Assembly: GCA_964016885.1 (NCBI GenBank)
Contig: OZ024743.1
Location: 44,268,001-44,332,000, forward strand
DNA length: 64,000 nt
Source: Eledone cirrhosa
Lineage: Eukaryota
Reading direction: 5' to 3'
Of this stretch, positions 540 through 64,000 are shown piece by piece. Under the pieces are notes generated by a model that was given only the letters and a program-made list of their open reading frames with translations, ran no database searches and was not told the origin of the DNA. A program made the position numbers and the translations under genes. Within the stretch, counting starts at the first letter, position 1, and the number at the start of each line of letters is the position of its first letter.

Positions 540-1242
540 ACATCGAAACTAGTCCAAGATTCCTGTCTGGCCCTCTGGAGAATAGAGGAAATGTGTTTCC
601 TTGAAAACTCGCATGACTCTAAAACCCGGTCCGCCTGTGTGGTTACATACAGACTAGCTGACACTCACTGTAAAGTGTCTAGTGAAAAGCTGAGTACATG
701 TACATATGTATACATGTGTGTATTTATATGCATACTAATACTTCCGTATACATATGTAGATGTACACTTTAACTTAATTGTTTAAGCGTCAGTCATACAA
801 AAGTGAGTTAGAAGCGAAACGAAATTTAATTTCGTTTCGTTATTTGTTTTTATCGTTTCCGCTGAACCGGTGCGTACAATGACTCACGTTCTATTCAAAT
901 TAGTCTACCCACTACTAATTTTCATAGAAAAAGCATATAACGATATGTGCTTTTACAATTCTCCAGAGAAGCCGGAAGATGGGTAAATATTGCTGATGAG
1001 ATGTAATAACATCGAAACTAGTCCAATATTCCTGTCTGGCCCTCTGGAGAATAGAGGAAATGTGTTTCCTTGAAAACTCGTATGACTCTAAAACCCGGTC
1101 CGCCTGTGTGGTTACATACAGAGTAGCTGACACTCACTGTAAAGTGTCTAGTGAAAAGCTGAGTACATGTACATATGTATACATGTGTGTATTTATATGC
1201 ATACTAATACTTCCGTATACATATGTAGATGTACACTTTAAC

Positions 1243-1248
<6 letters not shown>
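540..1248 (+). mobile_element. Non-coding HHR-bearing retroelement (retrozyme-like), about 1.5 units of a 469-nt monomer
   Basis: 541-779 is repeated almost identically at 1010-1248 (offset 469). Intact hammerhead at 986-1030. No credible ORF. Flanked by (CA/TA)n. Confidence 0.8.
986..1030 (+). ncRNA. Type I hammerhead ribozyme (minimal, palindromic loop 3)
   Basis: Stem I AATATTG(986-992)/CAATATT(1024-1030); core CTGATGA 993-999; stem II GATGT-AATA-ACATC; GAAA 1014-1017; loop CTAG; GTC cleavage site after 1023. Distal pairing TCTCCAGAG(960-968)/CTCTGGAGA extends stem I. Confidence 0.9.
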
Positions 1249-10879: not shown

Positions 10880-13520
10880 AGTATTTAAGTTTCCGTTGAA
10901 AATTGAAAAGGTCATAGGAGTGAAGTGTGCTCTATGTAAGTACCAGAGCAAAATTTTATGTATAATAAACAATACAATATAACTACAGTGCTGATGTTTG
11001 TGATTTAGTCGGCCTATTCCTCCTACACACACTTAAAGAAAAATTCCCTAACCATATTTTGGGGTTTTATCGCGACGATAATCTAATACTTTCCCATACC
11101 ACCATAGGCCATAACTTAGATAGATTAAGTAAAGACTTAATAAAAACCTTTGCTAGTTTTAATCTTAAAATTACTATTGACACTAACCTTTCCAATGTTA
11201 ACTTTCTAGATATAAACCTAGATTTGCCTACTGCTTCTTATAAACCGTACCATAAACCTGATGAAAATTTAAAATACATAAATAAAGGCTCTTGCCATCC
11301 TCCTATAGTTTTTAAAAGCCTAATCCCTAATATTAGTCGTAGGATCTCCACCCTCTCTTCCTCAGAAGCTATTTTCAATAAGGCATCCCCTTACTATAAT
11401 AAAGCCCTTCAAAATAGCCGTTTTAGCGAACCGATTAAGTACATACCCAACAATACTAACTCTGTTAAACATAATAATGGGAAAAGAAAAATAATCTGGT
11501 TCACACCCACCTAATCTCTAGCAGTTAAAACTAATGTAGGCCAAACATTCCTCGAGCTCTTAGATAAACATTTCCCTAGAATACATAGATACTATAAGAT
11601 CTTCAATAGAAACTATGTCAAAATTAGCTACTCCTGTGGTCCCCCTATTAAATCTTATATCATCAATAAGAAATCACCTAGAGAACATCAAAATTGCTCC
11701 TGTAGAGTCAAAAGTGAATGCCCATTACAAGCCAAATGCAACACCAAAGCCATTGTATATGCGGCTAAAATGACAACCATTAGCAACAACCAACCAGCCA
11801 CCAGTGAGAGATATGTGGGTATGACACAAGACAAATTCAAAACGCGTTATTACTCACATGTCGCATCTTTCCGACATCCAGAAAAAAGATTCACAACAGC
11901 TCTGGCTAGCAGAATATGGGATTTGAAAGACCAAGGTATCCAATATAAATTGGATTGCTCAATCTTGAACCAATCTAAAGAATATGCAAGAGGAACAAGA
12001 AGATGCACACTCTGCATAAGTGAAAAATATTGGATTTTACAAAACGTTAAATCACCAAAAACCTGCCTAAATACAAAAACGGAAATGTTCACCAGTTGCC
12101 CACACATGAAATCACACTTGCTTTGTAGCTCATATAAACTTAACTCACTTTCAGATACTTATCCGCCATAATCTCTTATTCTTCACTTTCCTTAAATTAT
12201 TCTCTTTACAGACTTCTTTTTCTTATTTACTTTCATTTTTAACTTTATTTTTAATTTTATTTTTTTACTTCACATCCACCAGTACCCCCCACCCCTACTC
12301 TTCAATTCACTTACCTAATAACTTCACGTTCCACATGTTACTCCCCCATTTTCTTTCAATCCCTGAATTACTTGTCACTTGCGTTTTCCACTCCAGATAT
12401 ATTCTGTTGTTTCGTAGCAGTTTTTATATTAGTACTCATTTATTCATAAGGCTGTTTATACTCTGTATCTATATTTCTGAATGTTTTTATGTGTGTATAC
12501 GTTCTGTATATGTATACGAGTGCCTCTGTATGTGTGCGTGCGTGCGTGTATATATACGTGTGTGTATGTGTGTTTTTATATCTATGTTTTTACATCTGTT
12601 TTTTACATTCTTATTTTTACGTGCGTGCGTAAGCGGGTGAATGTACGTGAATGTGTGTGTATGTGTGTATGTGTGTATGCGTGTATGTGTGTATGCGTAT
12701 GTATGGCTTTTGTATGTGTGTGTATATTATAGTCGCGTACGTACGTGTGATTAGATATACATGGGGCGAAATATATACACATATATATATATATATACGT
12801 GCCTCGTGTGTATGTATGTACGCATACATGCGCTTTTGTCTGTACGTATTTGTGTGTATAAATATTTTTATGGATATATGTTATTTATAGATATATGTGT
12901 TATTACGTGCGTCCCTATGTTTGTTTTCTTTTCTCTAGTGTTAATTGATTACTTTCTCTTTCATTTAACATTTTTTCTCATTCTCATATATTGTTTCATT
13001 TTTATACATATATCGAGAATGACAGTTCTTTTCACTAAGTGACCGCGCGTATGTGTGTGTTTATACGCGTGTTTTCATACTCGTATGTGTATTTAATACC
13101 TGTATCTAGATGCGTGTCAACTATATGATCATCTTCTCTTTCAACTCATATTATATCCGTATTTGTGGTCACATATACACAAATATACTTGCCCTCATAT
13201 ATATACTTACGCACACATTTGCACCATACACATGCATTTTTACATACACACATATGTACATTTGTGAGTGTATATACATACATATATACATACCTAACTA
13301 TATTTCCTTATATTTTTTGTATATTTTTCTATATTTTTTAATATATCTCTTGCATTACTTTTATTTATATATTTTTCGCATTTCTTGATGAGACTTTCCA
13401 AATATTTCACTATGTTTTATATTACCTTGTCCGACGAACGAATAAGGACGTTTTTTTCGTATTCGTCTTATTCGGGAAACCTCTGATAATGAGTATTTTA
13501 TTGTTTATTATACATTATAT
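10880..13520 (+). mobile_element. 5'-truncated Penelope-like element with inverted 5' tail, long microsatellite-like 3' UTR and degenerate terminal HHR
   Basis: 10959-10977 is the reverse complement of the 3' terminus (about 13495-13514). RT+EN at 10981-12171. CCGACGA-long stem-GAAA at 13431-13479. Flanked by (TA)n. Confidence 0.8.
10981..12171 (+). pseudogene. PLE reverse transcriptase C-half (YRDD type) fused to GIY-YIG endonuclease
   Basis: ADVCDLVGLFLL..GFYRDDNL..VNFLDINLDL..YKPYHKP..SCHPP..KRKIIWFTP, single TAA at 11512, then same frame KHFP..KIFNRNYVKISYSC..CSCRVKSECPL..IVY..YVGMT..FKTRYYSH..CTLCISEK. Confidence 0.9.
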
Positions 13521-13533
13521 ATATATATATATA

Positions 13534-13744
13534 TAACGAAGGAAATGTGGTAAGGAACCAGATGAACCATAACGCACCAAAGTACGTATTTAGGGTAGTA
13601 GAGTGGGTAATAGGAACGAGTAGGACCCCGACGGCTGAGCTCAAGCCGTTTCGACGGCTAATTCTGGACTAAAATGGACTATTTTTGTCCAGAATTAGCC
13701 GTCGAAACGGCTTGAGCTCAGCCGTCGGGGTCCTGCTCGTTCTT
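13534..13744. mobile_element. Fold-back PLE terminal fragment (family A)
   Basis: Arms gaacgagtaggaccccgacggctgagctcaagccgtttcgacggctaattctggac / reverse complement, plus an ~80-bp unpaired tail; inserted in (TA)n. Other copies at 19504, 28613, 34856, 49876. Confidence 0.75.
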
Positions 13745-13754
13745 ATATATATAT

Positions 13755-19506: not shown

Positions 19507-19647
19507 CAAAGATGGTGTGGTAAGATACCAGGTGGACCATAGCACAACAGAGTACTCAATATTTAGGGTAGTAGATCGGGTAATAGGAAAGGTGTTAGGA
19601 CCCCGACAGCTGAGCTACGGCTGTTTCGACAGCAAGATCCGAACTCA
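19504..19647 (-). mobile_element. Diverged family A PLE terminal fragment
   Basis: tgtggtaag..accata..tagggtagtaga..gggtaatagga..aggaccccgacagctgagct..ctgtttcgac aligns to 13534-13660. Confidence 0.7.
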
Positions 19648-28584: not shown

Positions 28585-28612
28585 TTTATATATATATATG
28601 TATATATATATA

Positions 28613-28676
28613 TAGGAACGAGTAGGATCCCGACGGCTGAGCTCAAGCCGTTTCGACGGCTAATTCTGGAGTCCAG
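28613..28676 (-). mobile_element. Family A PLE terminal fragment (short arm only)
   Basis: taggaacgagtaggatcccgacggctgagctcaagccgtttcgacggctaattctgga, nearly identical to 13611-13668. Confidence 0.8.
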
Positions 28677-28894: not shown

Positions 28895-29420
28895 TTAGAT
28901 TAATAGAGTTCTTACATTTAAGTATGAAAAAATTTCCTCAACACACCATTTGCAGAATCTAGATAAAGCTGTGTTTCGGTACGCGGGTGCTTTCGAAACT
29001 ATTTCGAAACTAGTTAATGAATAGTCCATATTTTTGCATTTTAAGTTCCATATCAGGCTTGAAAGAGAAGTTGAAGATTGTTTATCAAATCTTCGGAAAG
29101 AGCATTTGTGATTATTCCAGCGACTTTTAAATTCTGTAGAAGTTGCACCTGCATAGTTAAATATATTATCACTGGTTTTTACTGTACATTTATAGACCAC
29201 GTCCTTATCTAAACACTTATTTTGTAAAGGACAGTTTAATTTAATTCTACAGTTACATTTTGCGGAGTTGTTGTTATTCAGAACGGTACTATTATGTTGG
29301 ATATTGTTAGAGATATTACTGCTATTTTGGTTATTTTCGTTAGGGTTTAAATTTCTATTATTGATTCTATTTATATGTTGTGCTATGTTCATAGTAATAG
29401 AGTAGGATACCACTATGAAC
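28895..29420 (-). pseudogene. PLE GIY-YIG endonuclease domain (5'-truncated)
   Basis: VSYSITMNIAQHI..CNCRIKLNCPLQNKCLDKDVVYKCTV..YAGATSTEFKSRWNNHKCSFR..TSLSSLIWNLK..CKWCVEE. Confidence 0.9.
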
Positions 29421-29479
29421 ATAGCACAAAATATAAATATAAACACAAAATATAAATATGAACATAGCACAAAATATAA

Positions 29480-29617
29480 ATATGAAGTAAGTGACATAGT
29501 CACTACTTTAAAATGATAGCGAAAGGTCTTCAAAATGTTTTTAATTAAACATACGGTATATTACCAAATGTACTATACGTACATTCATGTATACATCGCT
29601 ATTTCAGAGCACCAATC

Positions 29618-34855: not shown

Positions 34856-34858
<3 letters not shown>

Positions 34859-35050
34859 CGAAGGAATTGTGGTAAGGAACCAGATGAACCATAACACACC
34901 AGAGTACACAATACTTAGGGTAGTAGAGTGGGTAATAAGAAAAAAGTATGACCCCGACGGCAAAACTCAAGCCGTTTCGACGGCTATCTTTGTCCAGAAA
35001 TAGCCGTCGAAACGGCTTGAGCTCTGCCGTCGGGGTCATACTTTTTCCTA
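34856..35050. mobile_element. Fold-back PLE terminal fragment (family A)
   Basis: gtatgaccccgacggca..ctcaagccgtttcgacggcta / tagccgtcgaaacggcttgag..tgccgtcggggtcatac, plus left tail; in (TA)n. Confidence 0.8.
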
Positions 35051-35162
35051 TATATATATATAAGTAGAAGGGATATTTAATTTGTTGGAAATTCAACAAA
35101 TAAAAATATCGACAGTTTCAATGATATTAAATAAATGGAAACTATATTTATAAAACCATATT

Positions 35163-49875: not shown

Positions 49876-50039
49876 TAGGTACGAGTAGGACCCCGACGGC
49901 TGAGCTCAAGCCGTTTCGACGCGGCTTGAGCTCAGCCGTCGGGGTCCTACTCGTTCCTATTACCCACTCTACTACCCTAAGTATTGAGTACTTTGGTGCG
50001 TTATGGTCCATCTGGTTCCTTACCACATTTCCTTCATTA
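49876..50039. mobile_element. Fold-back PLE terminal fragment (family A)
   Basis: acgagtaggaccccgacggctgagctcaagccg / cggcttgagctcagccgtcggggtcctactcgt, plus right tail; in (TA)n. Confidence 0.85.
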
Positions 50040-50051
50040 TATATATATATA

Positions 50052-50481
50052 TTCCGTTTATCGTTTTCGGTGCACCCGGCCGATTAACCCACTCGATATG
50101 CAAATTGGGCTACTCAGCCGTTAATATGCATAAGGTAAGTATATACGTTCAGCAATCTGGCAGGAAGGTATACGTTGCTGACGATAGCTAATAAGTTTGA
50201 AACTAGTACAGCGTTCCTTTGTCAGTGTTGAACAAACGAGCAACGATGGTTGCTAGACACTACGGCTTAATACAGGATGTTTGTTTACAAACACGCCGAG
50301 CATTATAATAAATGTTCAGTGAATCCATACGTACATATATATATATATGTGTGCATGTATGTATATATATATATACATACTACTGTACGTCTGTATACAC
50401 ATATGTATGTACGTGTACATACTTATATTTAAGTAACAGCCGTTCTAAGAGTGGGAAATGAAATTTCGTTTCATTTTTTCC

Positions 50482-50487
<6 letters not shown>
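50052..50487 (+). mobile_element. Unit-length (426-nt) HHR retroelement monomer, circularly permuted relative to 540-1248
   Basis: TTCCGTTTAT at both ends (50052 and 50478); central HHR; blockwise homology to 540-1248; (TA)n on both sides. Confidence 0.75.
50172..50214 (+). ncRNA. Type I hammerhead ribozyme (minimal, palindromic loop 3)
   Basis: Stem I ACGTTG/CAGCGT; CTGACGA 50178-50184; stem II AGC-TAATAA-GTT; GAAA 50199-50202; CTAG; GTA cleavage after 50208; distal pairing TGGCAGGAAGG/CCTTTGTCA. Confidence 0.85.
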
Positions 50488-50518
<31 letters not shown>

Positions 50519-50698: not shown

Positions 50699-50760
<62 letters not shown>

Positions 50761-50769
50761 ATAATAATA

Positions 50770-52517
50770 AATATAAAGACTAAAATCCAAAGAGGGCTCG
50801 GCAACATCACCACGGAGCCTAACACAACCAGTTTCCCAATATACCAAATAGACCGCCACCACCTGCCACCACCTGCCAATCTCGAACTAGAAGAAAAACT
50901 CTCGAGTCTAAAACAGTCCGTATTTAACATCTTACGGAAACAGGAAGATAGGCCCAAAACTCTCCAGGACGCAATAACTCGCTCTGAAGAACCTGTCGAA
51001 AAGGGAACTCATCCACTTACCATCCGACAAAGGGAAAGAGTTTTGTGTCATCTCTCAAGACACATACAACAATCTGGCGTTTGAACATTTAAGCGACAAC
51101 AAACTGTATACAGAGGTCCCGGACATAACTGCAGCCCAGATCGAAAAACAGGCCAACTCCATCTGGTTTGACATCTGTAGCAGTCGACAACTCCCAAATA
51201 AATTTAAGTCCAATTACATCACTAGAAATAGCAGATTGCCCACTTTCTATTACCTCATCAAGACCCACAAGAATAGTGCTAAGACACAAATAAGACCCAT
51301 CGTCTCTAGCATACAAGGGCCCCTATACAAATTTTCCTGGCTCCTCTCCCAAGTTCTTAAGCCTTTACTCTCCACCTTTCCCGGCCATGTCAGTAACTCC
51401 GACGAGGTTATACGTAGACTACACCAACTCCAGCCAGAACAACTTAAACTCAATAGAGACGCCTTTAGCCTCGACGTTGTCTCCTTCTATACTACAGTCC
51501 CCGCTCATCCAGCTGTCGATTTATTGACGGACTGCGTGATCGCCGAAGACGTCCACTGCTACGGCCTCCAACTGACGGATATACAACAGCATTTGTCCTT
51601 CACGGTGGACAACACATACTTCACCTTCACCACCACACATACAGACAGACAGACAGCAGGATTACCCATGGGATCCAGCTTATCACTTTCATGAACCAGC
51701 TGGAATGCCGAGCCCTCAACACCTGCCATTCCTGTACCTTCTTCACCCGATATGTAGATGACATACTAATCCTTACATTATCCTGCGAGGAAGCGAATAA
51801 AACATACATAGCATTCTCCAGCATGGAGGCCAATATAATTTTCGGCATAGAACACCCCGAAGAGCGTGGATCCCTATCCCTATTAGACTTCCAACTCAGA
51901 GTAATAGAGAAAGGCGACATCCACACATGCTTCTATAAAAAAGTCGCCATCAGGGACTAGTTCATCCATTTCAGGTCGGCCTTCCCACTCGGCGCCAAGT
52001 TCGGATACATAAGGAACGAACTGACACGTATCCGGAACAAATGCACCGACGCAAGAGACCGAGACACACACACAGCACACTTCCTGGAAGTACTTAAACT
52101 AAACGGATTCCCGATGTCCACTGTGAAGCGTGCCAGAAACAACAGAAGACACCACACCCAAAGGACTAACACCTGCTTCCTGAAGCTCCCACACTTCAGT
52201 GATGAAACCACAACGGCCAACCCCAAGGCCATCAGACGAGTGGGACTAGATATCCAGCTAGCCCACTCAGGACCTTCTCTACGCCGACAGTTAGCCAAGA
52301 GAAATTCCACCAGAAAATACAGCCGCTTCACGCTGGCCAACTGATGTAAAAACATCAACAAAAACATAATAGTTAGGATAGAAGCTAAGGAAAGAAACCT
52401 CGGCAATCCTATAATTAAAGAAGCATTAATTATAGACAAAACGCAACCACAAATCAATAATAGATTAGAACTCAACACCAAATTGTTAACATGATAGAAC
52501 ATCTAGCCCGCACGTAT

Positions 52518-55200: not shown

Positions 55201-55724
55201 AAGATTTACATAACCAAATCTGATGTTGTGTTAGATTTATTCGATCACGGGCTGTACATTTTAATGAAAAGTACAATTGTTTGGATGAGCTTCCAGGCAG
55301 TTCCTGTTCAACTAATTTCATTCACACAGTATCGTGCGACTACAGACTTTAATAGAGATTATTGCTTACGATCCTACGCTGTTGGATTGGATCCCTGACT
55401 TTCTTATTGCAGAGCGAATATCTTAACCATTTAGTATATATAACATAATAGTGTATTATATATATAATTAACAATGATTTAAATTAAATCATTTAATTGT
55501 TTTACGAGCGTTTCATCAGATGGAATATTACATTGCTGTTAGAATAAGTTCATTAGAATCTAGTAAAACGACAATATTTAATAAAAAAAAAAAAACAAAT
55601 AATGAAATATTACGTGCTAATGACGAAATAGGGGATGAATATTTATGACGGATAAAAACCCCAACATTTTGGCAAATCACACACACTCACAAATATATTT
55701 ATATTCCAGGCCTGGAACAATGAC

Positions 55725-57625
55725 GTGCCAGCTTTGTATGGGCTTCGAAAAGACCATAAAACGAGCAGTGACCCTGTCACGGGACCACCAACACGGCCAA
55801 TCCGTGGAGCTAACATTGGTAGTAACTGCAGACTGTCCTACTTCCTCTCCCTGATCATATGCCCCACCATTGAAATGTCCCCAGATGTATGTGACAGCAC
55901 GGAGGATCTCCTCAGCAGAATCGGCGAGAGTAACCGATCTAGGGACCTAACAAACTGCATAATAGGTAGTATGGATGACGGGTCCCTGTATTCATTTATC
56001 GACGTGGATTTTGCTGTGGAGAAATGCGTAGAAATGATCAGTGAGGGCAATGTTGAATTCCGTGGGATTGATACCAGTGAGCTGGGACTCATACTTAAAC
56101 TTACCTATAGTAATAATTATCTAGACACATATGACCTTAGCAACTTGTGCCCTACAAGACCAGCAAGAGGCAGACCACCTACCATTACCTCAATGGCTAA
56201 GAAAACCCACACAGATAGATGGAACGGGTGGACCAGAGCCATACGGACCCCCGAAAACCACGATGAACTAAAGAAAATGATTGCACATGCGGTGGGGGCC
56301 AGCATAAAATTAACCCATAAGGAACATATGTTCAAATGTAATGGAAAAACATATGCCCAAGAGGAGGGAGCAGCCATTGGTGTTAGAATTGCAGGCGACA
56401 TAGCTAACTTATTCATGGTATGGTGGGACAGTAGACTTAAACTTAAACTTAAAGAACAATTAGAAGACCCCTTAACCCTAATAATGTACTCCCGCTACGT
56501 TGATGATATAAACATTGTAGTTAAAACACCCCCACTAGAGAACAGTCAGGAATTAGAGAAAAACACCATGGAAAGCATCCAGCAAACAGCTAACTCCATC
56601 CACCAGAGTATTAGAGTTACTATAGACTACCCAAGCAAACACCCCAACCATCGATTACCTGTACTAGACACAGAGCTCTGGTTAGATACCATTAATAACA
56701 AAAAACAAATCCTCCATTCCCATGATGCCAAACCCATGACTTCCAAATATCTGATCCACCGAAACTCAGCTGTTTCGGACCATACCAAAATCAACATACT
56801 GATTGCGGATTTGGTACGGGTGATGAGAAACGTGTCCCGCATGTGCAACCCCGAAGAACTAGAGAGACACATACAACACTTCATCCACCGTATGCAGTTC
56901 TCTGGTTACAATCAGAGTGATAAAATCAGAGTGTATAGAGGAGCCAGAACCAAATGGGAAAAAATGGTAAATAATGACACAAATGGTACCTGCCCCATGT
57001 ATAGGAGTAAATTTTGGAATATAATAGAAAGAACTAGGAATAAGGCTTATAGAATAAAGTCATGGTATGATAGCAATAAATACCAGAGTGTAATGTTCAT
57101 CGATACAACCCCTAGAGGTGAATTCGCTTACAAATTTAGAAGGGCCCAAGATAAACATAAACTCAATATTAACATAGTAGAAATACCAGGTACCTCCATA
57201 AAAACACTTATTAGCAAGACATGCCCTTTTCAAAGACCTCTCTGTATAGATAAGAAATGTATAATCTGTAAATTAAGCCCCCATATTAACTGTAAAACTA
57301 GAAATGTAGTATATAGCATAAGATATACTGAAGGACAATGTAGAGATAAAAATATAGTGTACATATGTGAGACAGCTCGTATTATAGGGAAACGGATAAA
57401 TTAACACTGGCGAGACCTTCAAGATAGTAAAGAGTCATCTGTACTCTACCAACATGCTAAAATAGAACATAAGGGTAAATTAGAGAACATAGAAATAAAA
57501 ATAGAATCTACACACAGAAAAGACGCAATGTTTAGACAAATCACAGAGGCAATAAACATAAATGAATTACAACCAAAATTAAATAGAAAACATGAGTGGA
57601 ACAGCAACATCACAACTTACAATTA
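55725..57625 (+). pseudogene. Penelope-like element RT + GIY-YIG ORF, 5'-truncated, 559 open codons then one TAA
   Basis: LYGLRKDHK, PTRPI, IGSMDDGSLY, QEEGAAIG, YSRYVDDI, LPVLD, SGY, Cys linker CIDKKCIIC..CKTRNVVY..VYICETAR; after TAA 57402 the frame continues HWRDL..SVLYQH..EH..RQITEAINI..LNRKHEW. Confidence 0.92.
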
Positions 57626-60312: not shown

Positions 60313-61010
60313 GTATACATACATACATACATACATACATACATACATACATACATACATACATACATACATACAATGGCGACCGTTATGGTCAGTGTCC
60401 GATAATCGACGTGTGTAATTACGGCTTACATGAAGGCAACATACCTTATATTGGAAAAAGTTGAGCTACATTAAGCAGTAAGATTACATACAATACCTCT
60501 ACATAAGTGTTTGAACTGTAAGTGTGTTGTAAAACACCTATTTATATGAACGATACATACACTTATGATATATTAAGAATAAATACACTTTAACATGTAA
60601 ATGCAACGTTGTTATATTACATTTGTAAAGAAATATGCAAGTAATATGCAAGTAACGTTTTCGATTCAGAAACAAAAACATAAGTGTTTGAAACGTGAAT
60701 ATGTTGTAGAACACCTATTTATATGAATGATACATAAACTTTAACATATAAATACAGCGTTGTTATATTATATTACATTCATAAAGAAATATACTAAGTA
60801 ACGTTTTTTTTTGTTGCTCTCGATTCTAACGATTCAAGAACAACGTTTAAAACACAGTTGTAGAATTAAAAACTAACTTAAAATAAGTATTACCCAAGCT
60901 GCGAATAACTTTAAATTTGATTCTGACAGAACTTTGTCGAAACTTTTAAAGAAGTTCATCGACTATTTTGAAAAATAAATACAAAATATTAGTGAATAGA
61001 CGAACTCATC

Positions 61011-64000
61011 ATGGCAAAATGTACAAGTCTCCTGCGACAAAATCGCAACTACAACCGTTGTATACAGTGGAGCTACGAGCTTAACAAAGAATTATATGAA
61101 GCATACCAACAATCTGAACCCCAAAAGTTCGGTTTTATGCAAAGGCTAAACACTTTATGGAACTCCAAACACCCAGAATTAGACTTTTCTCCAAAGCATT
61201 TAAATGAACAGGCAAAACGTATCATTAGATGTAAATTGATACATCTAACGGAATTGAGTGATAGTACAAATACAGCCCTTGTAGACAACCACCCCACCTT
61301 CGCTGACAGACAAGAGAATGGCCAGCTAAATCTAATAGTGAACAGCTCACCAACAATTTTGCTGAAATCCATCCCACTTTCACTGAAGAACAGCAAGAAT
61401 GGTCAGCTAACTCTAGTAGTAATTGTCACCAAATCAACAACGAGGCTGAAATTCATGACTCTACTGTACAAACAGAACACCAAAAACTTGTGGACACCTT
61501 ACAAGTGATATGGGACTATATGTTTCAAGAGATACACAGCCTTAATGTGAGTGACAGACCATACAACACTAGAATCAGTAAAGAACCCACTAAATTGGAA
61601 TTGGAAGTGGTGAACGAAATAGTTGACAATTATCTGAAGGCTATACGATCTAAAGGTGTAGAAACGACCTTTGAAACGCTTAATATTGTGTTATATGTTT
61701 GAGCTGTCACATTGCTATCATATAACAAACATCTAAAGCCACGCAATCAAGATACAAATAAAAAGCCTGAACCAGCGTGGGTGCGAAATTTAAAAAGCAA
61801 AATGTTGTCCCTGAGACGAAGTATCTCACACATCGCAGTCGTTATGAAATCCAACATAGAGAGCAACTTCACACGACACCAGGAAGAACTAAAACAAAAG
61901 TTAGAGAGACGATTTGGAGATACAAAATTTAAAACTTTAAACTCCAAATCACACCAGTTGAAACAACAACTCATAGCTACAACAGAAAGACTAAAATATA
62001 AGTCAACAGCACATAAACGACAAGTGCTAAATAGATTGTTTGCCAGAGATCCTAAATCAGTTTATCGCAGCTTCGGTGGCAAAAAATCAATCTCTGTAAA
62101 TGACACCCCTTCAAAAGAACGGGTTGAGAACTACTGGAGATCTGTATGGGAAACGGATGATGGATTCAACAGACAAACTAATTGGCTGAAAGAACTGGAA
62201 CAGGTCTACTGCCAACATGTCCAGACAAAACAGTATGACATAGATGGGTGAATACTGGAAACAGCTCTACAGAAAATGTCGTATAGGAAATCACCAGGCT
62301 CAGATCTCATTACAGGATACTGGTTGAAGAATTTCACTTTCTATCGGCAAGATCTCATACGGCTGTTTACAGAAATCATTAAAGGCACACAAGAACTGCC
62401 CAGATGGTTATCAACTGCCACTACTCTCCTGATTCCCCAAAACAACCAAACCATCCTTGCTAAAAGTTAGCGCCCAATAGCCTGCCAAAACATCATATAT
62501 AAATTATATACTGGGTGCTTAACCTGTTCTTACAGGATCTCTATGCTATCAACAACATCATAACACATGAGCAAGCTGGTGGAAAGAGGGAGGTGTGTGT
62601 TGCATAGATCACCTACTAACTAATAAAATGATTCAAGAAAAAACAACAAAGAATCACAGAAACATGACTGAAGTGTGGCTGAACTATCAAAAAGCATTTG
62701 ATAGTGTACCTCATGGGTGGATTGTTAAGGCTTTACAGTTAGCAAAAGTCCAACAAGCACTGGTAGCTGCTGTTGAACGTCTGACCAAAAACTGGTACAC
62801 CAATTTGATCTTTAGACGTGAGAAGGAGCAAGTTAAGACTGATAAGATACATTACCAGAAGGGCATCTTTCAGGGTGAGAGCTTGTCAGTGCTACTCTTG
62901 GTTCTCTCACTAAATCCACTATTTTACCTACTCAGGAAACAAGGTTGACAAAGAAGTGAGTCCAGAAGTATCTCCCATCTTTTCTTTGTTGATGACCTGA
63001 AGTTGTATGGGCCAAATATCAATGACATCAAGAAACAATTGAACACAATTTTCAACAGACATCAAAATGAAATTTGGTGAGTCCAAGTGTACATATTTGG
63101 CAGTAAAACGTGGAAGAGCCGTGCCCTCCTCTAGAAATCTAGAGATGAACGGCCTGACAATACAACCTCTACAGTCAGGTGACAACTACAGATATCTTGG
63201 ACAGGATGAGAATGTCAGATATGATGGACCCATAAATAAGGAGAGAACCAGAACTGAATACCTCAGAAGAGTAAAGAAAATATGGTCATCAGAACTGCCA
63301 GGGTATAACAAATACATTGCCCACAATACTTATGCTGTGCCAATTGTAACGCCAAAATTTGGCCTGCTGAACTGGTCTTGCAAGGACTAAGTGAGATGGA
63401 TGTTAGAACTCGCAAACTTCTCAGTGTTTCTGGGAACTTTAACATCACTGGTGATGTGGATAGGCTATACTTCTCACGCAAGGAAGGTGGGCGGGGTCTA
63501 AAGTCCATATTAACATCATATGAGACTCGGATAGTAACTCTGAAGCAACATATTTAACAGAGGAGAAATGTTGGTAACCATCTTGCCAGGTTTATGAGCA
63601 TGAAAAAAAAAACATTATTAGAATAGCCACTGATCTGGAGGAGAGATATGGAATAAAGCCTGATATAAATCTCTCACCCAGAGAAATCGGAAGATCCTAT
63701 TCAATGTTCAAACACGATGAAAAAATTTACCAATTTACAGAAAAAGTTATGCATGGATAATTGAGACGTAAAACACAGACCATAGGGAGGATAAACCACT
63801 CAAAAAGCCTGGCATGGAGTTCTGACAAGTTTATGACATCACACCTATGCAATACAGGAACAAGAACTCCCTACCAAATATCTGCTGCACAAAAGAGGAG
63901 GGCCATCAGCTGACAATAAATGTAGACTTTGTAAAACAAAGATCGAGGATGTAAGCCACATTGTTGCCAGCTGCGAAAAAATGTCATCTCGCTACTACCT
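61011..64000 (+). pseudogene. R4/Dong-clade (RLE) non-LTR retrotransposon ORF, disrupted, running off the window
   Basis: N-term WSYELNKELY..GFMQRL..W..P..LNEQAKRI; KSPGSDLITGYWLK; RPIACQNIIYK; YQKAFDSVPH; GIFQGESLS; SHLFFVDDLKLY; MKFGESKC; YRYLG; DRLYFSRKEGGRGL; CRLCKTKIEDVSHIVASC zinc knuckle. Several stops and frameshifts. Confidence 0.9.

Follow-up and report, generated by a model that had tools for sequence, protein, structure and literature searches.

The 436-base element at 50052–50487 of the window, the 64,000-nucleotide stretch of an animal genome (3.0-Gb assembly) analysed here, belongs to a known class, the metazoan non-LTR retrozymes. Our analyses indicate with good confidence that it is a 5′-truncated copy of a non-coding hammerhead tandem repeat whose insertions end at two sites by (TA)n, and that a Penelope-like reverse transcriptase (RT)-endonuclease is the likely inserting enzyme. 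The identity of the mobiliser of animal retrozymes, and the question of whether their circles act as templates, have so far rested on co-occurrence and on pLTR likeness. Here the insertion junctions themselves show the signature of Penelope, and the sites concerned are conserved in two retrozyme families about 70% alike.

The element consists of one 426-nt unit plus 10 nt. As the initial annotation had described, it begins and ends with the 10-mer TTCCGTTTAT, which occurs exactly in the window only at 50052 and 50478 (period 426), lies between (TA)n tracts, (TA)7 on the left and about (TA)15 on the right, and carries an internal hammerhead. The 10-bp repeat is a short overshoot of which three letters are common to the target. 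A target-site duplication, raised in the same annotation as a competing explanation of the repeat, is ruled out, as the repeat is internal unit sequence that occurs at the unit junctions of tandem arrays. The ends of the element are unit overlaps, LTR structure is absent, and no ORF of 150 aa is present between them. Against the family-2 column majority, the copy deviates at 6 of 302 scored positions, and all six deviations also occur in other insertions. With a single ribozyme it would not release a monomer by double cleavage and is thus probably a dead end, an otherwise ordinary family member.

Features of the retrozyme insertion and of its relative in the window
Feature	Positions	Strand	Description	Basis
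Non-LTR retrozyme insertion	50052..50487	+	1.02 units of 426-nt family 2; single arm; 5′-truncated, 3′ end at site B, one ribozyme only	
(TA)n target, left half	50038..50051	.		sequence
5′ truncation point	50052..50061	+	10 nt beyond one full unit, giving the apparent terminal repeat	
ATGCAAAT, candidate promoter element	50098..50105	+	111 nt before the cut; putative function	
Type I hammerhead motif	50164..50220	+	predicted cut between 50208 and 50209	sequence, fold, covariation
TA-rich self-complementary block	50328..50425	+	internal to the unit	
Site A, upstream fixed 3′ end	50420..50435 (ends about 50424–50431)	+	loop of small hairpin	45/103 ends, fold
"Tail" between sites A and B	50432..50487	+	about 56 nt; carries hairpin about 50453–50481	
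Site B, downstream fixed 3′ end	50478..50487	+	final TAT common to the (TA)n target	43/103 ends
(TA)n target, right half	50488..50515	.		sequence
Related family-1 insertion	540..1248	+	1.51 units of 469 nt; 3′ end at site A	

The hammerhead motif comprises a stem I with an internal loop, the core CTGACGA (50178–50184), stem II (50185–50198), GAAA (50199–50202) and a palindromic stem III of 2 bp. An Rfam search of the window at gathering threshold gave zero matches. The core is intact in 84 of the 103 family-2 ribozyme copies examined. Stem II of family 2 is closed by U-U instead of G-C. At 50196 the window copy carries a G-U pair that is in the minority, T being found there in 7 of the 103 ribozyme copies. 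Animal type I ribozymes usually have a short palindromic stem III, and they are thought to require a dimer (PMC4209133). When five ribozymes from four subfamilies were aligned, 6 of 19 pairs had changed on both sides and 91.6% of cells paired, compared to 39–51% when the alignment was slid, the rows being few and related; the stem changes noted initially as covariation-like are consistent with this pattern.

Rotated to the cleavage site, the 426-nt unit aligns with the 469-nt unit at 555–1023, with 288 identities in 414 aligned pairs. The score of 236 compares with 17.8 ± 13.5 for shuffles (0 of 500 as high, z about 16) and with −11 for the unrotated alignment, the cleavage register being the best rotation. 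After removal of the ribozyme and the TA-rich block, z is about 10 with 0 of 1000 shuffles as high, values that are slightly optimistic because the bounds were taken from the alignment. Thus, the homology of the element to 540–1248 in rotated order, proposed in the initial annotation, extends beyond the hammerhead and low-complexity parts, and the diverged family of 426–469-nt hammerhead units that it envisaged is evident both from this alignment and from dispersed genomic copies. Indeed, the exact ribozyme pattern of these related families has 19,619 matches in the genome and its reversed control 0, and the family-2 unit recurs as dispersed copies at 93–97% identity (40 scored of 2031 first-look candidates). 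The units are short and low in GC, with one type I hammerhead each, and copies range from fragments and monomers to tandem arrays of about 32 units, spread over many contigs. Insertions of family 1 differ from one another by about 1% and are very young, while those of family 2, at about 3.7%, are older.

Several further features of these families were observed. Positions 18–28 of the family-1 unit (window 572–582), just past stem I, show recurrent and differing substitutions at many loci and constitute a hotspot. Insertions L052–L056, L128–L129, L383–L384 and L386–L387 have the same ends at regular spacing and are segmental duplications of the surrounding DNA. Sequence sets from two other organisms contain pieces 90–99% alike over most of the unit, with some contigs spanning the unit junction, indicating that the family is common to related organisms. 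Of two further sequence runs, one had no match to the unit and the other short weak pieces, results with no bearing on expression.

We mapped insertion ends in unit coordinates, with position 1 being the first base after the cut. Insertions were sampled with queries neutral for the 3′ end and with a positional list; for family 1 several queries were used, one of which favoured site A. The window copy and the 30 loci of the first family-2 search are excluded from the pool, as are insertions interrupted by the edge of a locus, segments shorter than 0.09 unit and duplicates, recognised by an identical pair of ends. The pool holds 74 family-2 insertions (36 head-to-head, 31 single and 7 complex) and 82 family-1 insertions (50 head-to-head, 31 single and 1 complex), the complex ones being uncounted for ends. 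BLAST blurs insertion ends into (TA)n.

The 3′ ends fall at two fixed sites. In family 2, 88 of 103 ends are located at site A (positions 212–228, 45 ends) or site B (272–283, 43 ends), with 15 elsewhere; these windows were set after inspecting the data and cover 7% of the unit. In family 1 the corresponding count is 124 of 131, with 58 ends at site A (220–233), 66 at site B (292–302) and 7 elsewhere, the windows again being set after inspection. The sites are homologous across the families, family-2 position 223 corresponding to 230 at site A and 279 to 299 at site B. In each family a small hairpin has site A in its loop (the similar family-1 hairpin is at 773–786), and between A and B there is a longer hairpin, the structure of which is kept in family 1 (fold z −1.9 here and −3.45 in family 1). 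Insertion into (TA)n, as first proposed, is seen at 73 of the 88 family-2 A or B ends, compared to 3 of the 15 other ends, and at 104 of 124 in family 1.

The two sites are also strictly paired. In head-to-head insertions both 3′ ends face outward, and one arm ends at A and the other at B in 26 of 36 cases in family 2 and 43 of 50 in family 1. No A+A or B+B pair was found in either pool, the remaining 10 family-2 pairs and the rest of the family-1 pairs each having an end elsewhere, so that A+B accounts for 69 of 69 classifiable pairs. The sole B+B pair, L010, comes from a set selected for site B and lies outside the pool. In the positional sample, which is part of the pool and covers the first 19.6 Mb of one contig, 26 of 31 ends are at A or B and 6 of 8 pairs are A+B.

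The 5′ ends are scattered. Their distribution is uniform in family 2 (KS P=0.59) and non-uniform in family 1 (KS P=0.005), the latter probably reflecting query bias. 5′ ends do not accumulate within 8 nt of the cut (5 of 88 against 3.3 expected in family 2; 3 of 124 against 4.2 in family 1), indicating that reverse transcription crosses the cut site without pausing and that the template is not a cleaved linear monomer. Arms longer than one unit make up 54 of 88 in family 2 and 91 of 124 in family 1, counts in which short arms are under-represented as the query region was required. Among arms of 0.75–1.35 units, those within −10 to +15 nt of one unit number 4 of 39 in family 2 (4.0 expected) and 1 of 37 in family 1 (3.4 expected). 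Exact unit length, which the initial annotation had read as the footprint of a circle, therefore occurs at the chance rate, and the permuted order of the two window copies is explained by their ends: 50052–50487 ends at B (50487) and 540–1248 at A (1248), each with a random 5′ truncation, and so they differ in phase. The suggestion that copies start at many TA-rich points gives way to two fixed homologous sites. Fixed linear ends, named initially as a finding that would count against the circular reading, are present at the 3′ side only, the 5′ ends being scattered. What stands of the proposed circular or multimeric template is that it is longer than one cleaved monomer; unit length and permutation do not mark it as a circle.

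Long arrays also occur. One (L325–L326; G000:C1, about 5.738–5.753 Mb) has about 32 units in one arm and 0.7 unit in the other and keeps A+B ends, showing that a dispersed insertion can become a small satellite. L091 and L237 are arrays of 14–15 units, and the repeating, higher-order variant patterns in the long arrays indicate DNA-level amplification.

The junctions match those made by Penelope-like elements. Penelope-like insertions show partial tandems, an inverted truncated arm, a 30–40-bp tail often at one end only and a (TA)n bias (Craig 2021, PMC8557442). A purified Penelope-like protein, predicted to be a dimer, cut and extended both strands of AT-rich DNA; RT began at either of two internal positions within a stem-loop, and the stretch separating these is the tail (Frangieh 2024, PMC11167929). 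The same study reports that, in vitro, RT starts without target homology and at the same site for both strands, that uncut RNA is the main substrate and that ribozyme mutants have no effect on insertion. In this genome, the Penelope-like family with an endonuclease-like ORF at 28895–29560 (−) of the window has a hammerhead-like core, after which come two alternative ends, about 90 nt apart, that run into (TA)n. Four of its head-to-head pairs (L364, L365, L366 and L376), identified by eye among 20 loci, each combine a short end with a tail. A second Penelope-like family, at 10969–12171, likewise has a hammerhead-like core and two alternative ends into (TA)n. A longer copy of the 28895–29560 ORF resembles RT and GIY-YIG clusters in a protein atlas, with nothing relevant in Pfam or the PDB. 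The two-end signature and the A+B head-to-head arms thus fit the Penelope-like agent named in the initial annotation.

An autonomous Penelope-like element carries an ORF with RT and a GIY-YIG endonuclease, while the retrozyme is non-coding. No likeness to the retrozyme was seen in 30 Penelope-like loci of one family, no in-line ORF lay upstream of any arm in 244 loci, and a pattern search for a partner element was swamped by retrozyme matches. Pfam searches with six window ORFs gave a weak RVT_1 match for one only; the L180 ORF gave nothing relevant, and no solved structure was matched. As no partner resembling the retrozyme was found among the few Penelope-like families covered, the agent is deduced from the junction signature.

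The window contains other elements with comparable ends. A separate short non-coding family (49878–50037, 13534–13750, 34857–35055, 19516–19630 and 28612–28661; also L347, L362 and L367) lies head-to-head in (TA)n. One of its arms is short and the other has a tail of about 78 nt, which is the two-end signature, and these copies have no ribozyme match. The hairpin element at 49878–50037 was considered as a possible 3′ terminus for the Penelope-like family at 28895, an assignment that we dropped since that family has its own ends. At least four more hammerhead-like families are present (3285 (+), 41327 (−), 24448 (+), 39503 (+), 28347 (+), 57834 (+), 35216 (−) and 40964 (+)), each ending just before (TA)n; 24448 and 39503 look like the short-end and tail forms of one family, and 57834 lies after the RT ORF at 55656–57404. 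Penelope-like or RT-like ORFs are located at 1704–2000 (−), 10969–12171 (+), 28895–29560 (−), 50760–52500 (+) and 55656–57404 (+); stops or frame changes interrupt some of them. In the first three, a cysteine-rich linker is encoded together with an endonuclease-like domain at the C terminus. The protein at 11515 has 66,460 first-look candidates in the genome. Two ORF pieces at 60996–62251 resemble the N-terminal part of another retroelement.

The nature of the template can be addressed with sequence variants. If the template is a circle, its variants should appear in all units of both arms; if it is a linear multimer, variants should be shared by the arms in one unit only. Our tally covers 49 family-1 insertions with two arms and counts variants that no more than two insertions carry, at positions with at least threefold coverage. 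Both arms share rare variants: eight were present in every unit of both arms (five of these private to the insertion), two in the same unit only (L231 and L249, in the 3′-most unit) and four in mismatched units (one of which, in L095, is probably an alignment artefact). A further seven were found in several units of one arm and 111 in a single unit. In family 2 there were three every-unit variants and one partial, with L059 and L162 among the sharing insertions. In L380 a commoner variant is common to unit 5 of both arms, which fits a linear model or exchange between arms. Under circle and linear models alike, the two arms are from one RNA or one locus.

These patterns lead us to lean towards a monomeric, and likely circular, template. 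Its main competitor, which we regard as less probable and yet a substantial contender, is Penelope-type insertion from an uncleaved linear multimeric transcript of tandem source arrays, with circles, if any, as by-products. The long arrays described above exist, DNA-level amplification can homogenise their units, and homogenised arrays such as L091 and L237 could supply uniform linear templates. The two variants common to both arms in one unit only are as this model predicts, ribozyme mutants left insertion unaffected in vitro, where uncut RNA served as the main substrate (PMC11167929), and the short stem III and U-U closing pair suggest, by our reading of PMC4209133, slow cleavage. However, in-register sharing of unit-specific variants (two) does not exceed out-of-register sharing (four), and sharing throughout an insertion (eight) is commoner than either. 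No source unit with the L231 variant was present among the 40 best matches, although it may be missing from the assembly, and the compensatory change in the ribozyme also weighs against this model.

Mobilisation by a LINE, with inversions arising by ordinary twin priming, appears improbable. Such an agent was left open by Cervera 2020 (PMC7229834), and 5′ truncations and inversions accompany target-primed insertion in general, but the retrozyme brings no 3′ tail of poly(A) or simple repeat with it, its second arm begins at a fixed site and not where the first arm stopped, and A+B pairing is strict. A still smaller chance attaches to spread at the DNA level with no RNA step, as a satellite or a rolling-circle DNA element (Helitron-like, or by reinsertion of circular DNA); the higher-order variant patterns in arrays would suit it, whereas the fixed 3′ ends, random 5′ truncation, head-to-head inversions and (TA)n junctions are as in the Penelope-like elements of this genome, and the covarying ribozyme points to an RNA stage. 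Least credible is the first reading of 50052–50487, as exactly one lap of a circle begun at any of many TA-rich points: the 1.02 units of this copy, like L030 (1.05) and L148 (0.99), agree with it, but it is refuted at the present sample size by the chance frequency of unit-length arms, the majority of arms exceeding one unit and the two fixed start sites.

On the preferred reading, target-primed reverse transcription by a Penelope-like enzyme, (TA)n would be nicked on both strands and the RNA bound at its hairpin-bearing tail. One strand would be primed at A and the other at B, both internal starts, on one RNA or on RNAs of one locus, and copying would continue until the enzyme drops off, producing random 5′ truncation. 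Survival of one arm only would yield a copy such as 50052–50487. With lesser weight, the template would be a self-cleaved and religated monomeric circle rather than an uncleaved linear multimer, and the long arrays would have been partly expanded afterwards at the DNA level. In a more specific version, which we offer tentatively and hold to be possible rather than probable, a dimeric Penelope-type enzyme grips one ribozyme-made circle at the conserved hairpin, primes both cut (TA)n strands on either side of the hairpin and copies round the circle on both, and has done so in thousands of young insertions. If true, this concerted reaction would provide evidence at the genome level that retrotransposition uses the circles of animal retrozymes as templates, and a single mechanism would then explain partial tandems, inverted arms and the Penelope tail. 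The strict pairing of start sites on opposite arms constrains the mechanism of Penelope-like enzymes. The in vitro assay already available could readily take as its substrate a 430–470-nt non-coding RNA such as this, whose starts are mapped and whose target is known.

Upstream of the ribozyme lies ATGCAAAT, which we take to be the octamer of snRNA promoters. It is conserved in 140 of 172 family-2, 90 of 103 family-1 and 12 of 12 and 13 of 15 subfamily copies, 111 nt from the cut in family 2 and 131 nt in family 1 and the subfamilies; the scored unit of the family-1 copy in the window has a variant at this position. As a single 8-mer kept between families 70% alike, it is weak evidence, and a lead, that the sequence may be a promoter element. 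Newt satellite 2 (PMC2220036) is likewise a hammerhead-bearing tandem repeat, and its internal snRNA-type promoter may have a counterpart in ATGCAAAT.

Compared with Penelope-like elements (PMC11167929, PMC8557442), the retrozyme has the same two alternative 3′ ends, one-end tail, inverted 5′-truncated arm, partial tandems, AT-rich or (TA)n target and ribozyme upstream of the start sites. It differs in that it has no ORF, its tails are 56 and about 70 nt rather than the reported 30–40 nt, and its start sites lie 220–300 nt after the cut and share a few bases with the target (TAT at site B). The strict A+B pairing also differs from the in vitro reaction of Frangieh 2024, in which both strands used the start sites alike. 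Non-autonomous Chlamys elements such as MRC1 (PMC8557442) are similarly non-coding Penelope-like passengers with head-to-tail multicopy insertions. However, MRC1-type elements resemble the 3′ end of their partner, in a clade without canonical hammerheads, whereas here a ribozyme is present and there is no partner likeness in the loci examined.

Cervera 2020 (PMC7229834) described non-LTR retrozymes and their circles and considered Penelope-like elements as candidates for mobilising them, and Li 2026 (10.64898/2026.07.22.740005) reported the co-occurrence of retrozymes with Penelope-like elements and their pLTR likeness; a circle as the template for copying beyond unit length was proposed in 2014. 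In the text covered, the 2020 and 2026 studies describe neither two fixed RT start sites nor head-to-head A+B arms, and the words "tail", "junction" and "initiation" are absent from the text of the latter. We found no work mapping retrozyme insertion ends to Penelope-type start sites in the literature covered, which consists largely of main texts outside subscription journals. The family reported here has no pLTR homolog in the loci examined. Several of its traits are those of the metazoan non-LTR retrozymes (Cervera and de la Pena 2020, PMC7229834; Li, Clavereau and Pollet 2026, 10.64898/2026.07.22.740005): both have low-GC tandem units of a few hundred nucleotides with one type I hammerhead each, both lack an ORF and LTRs and, presumably here as well, PBS/PPT, and both range from monomers to multimers and co-occur with Penelope-like elements. 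The units of 426–469 nt are slightly above the 170–400 nt given in 2020 (PMC7229834) and fall inside the 51–972 bp given in 2026 (10.64898/2026.07.22.740005).
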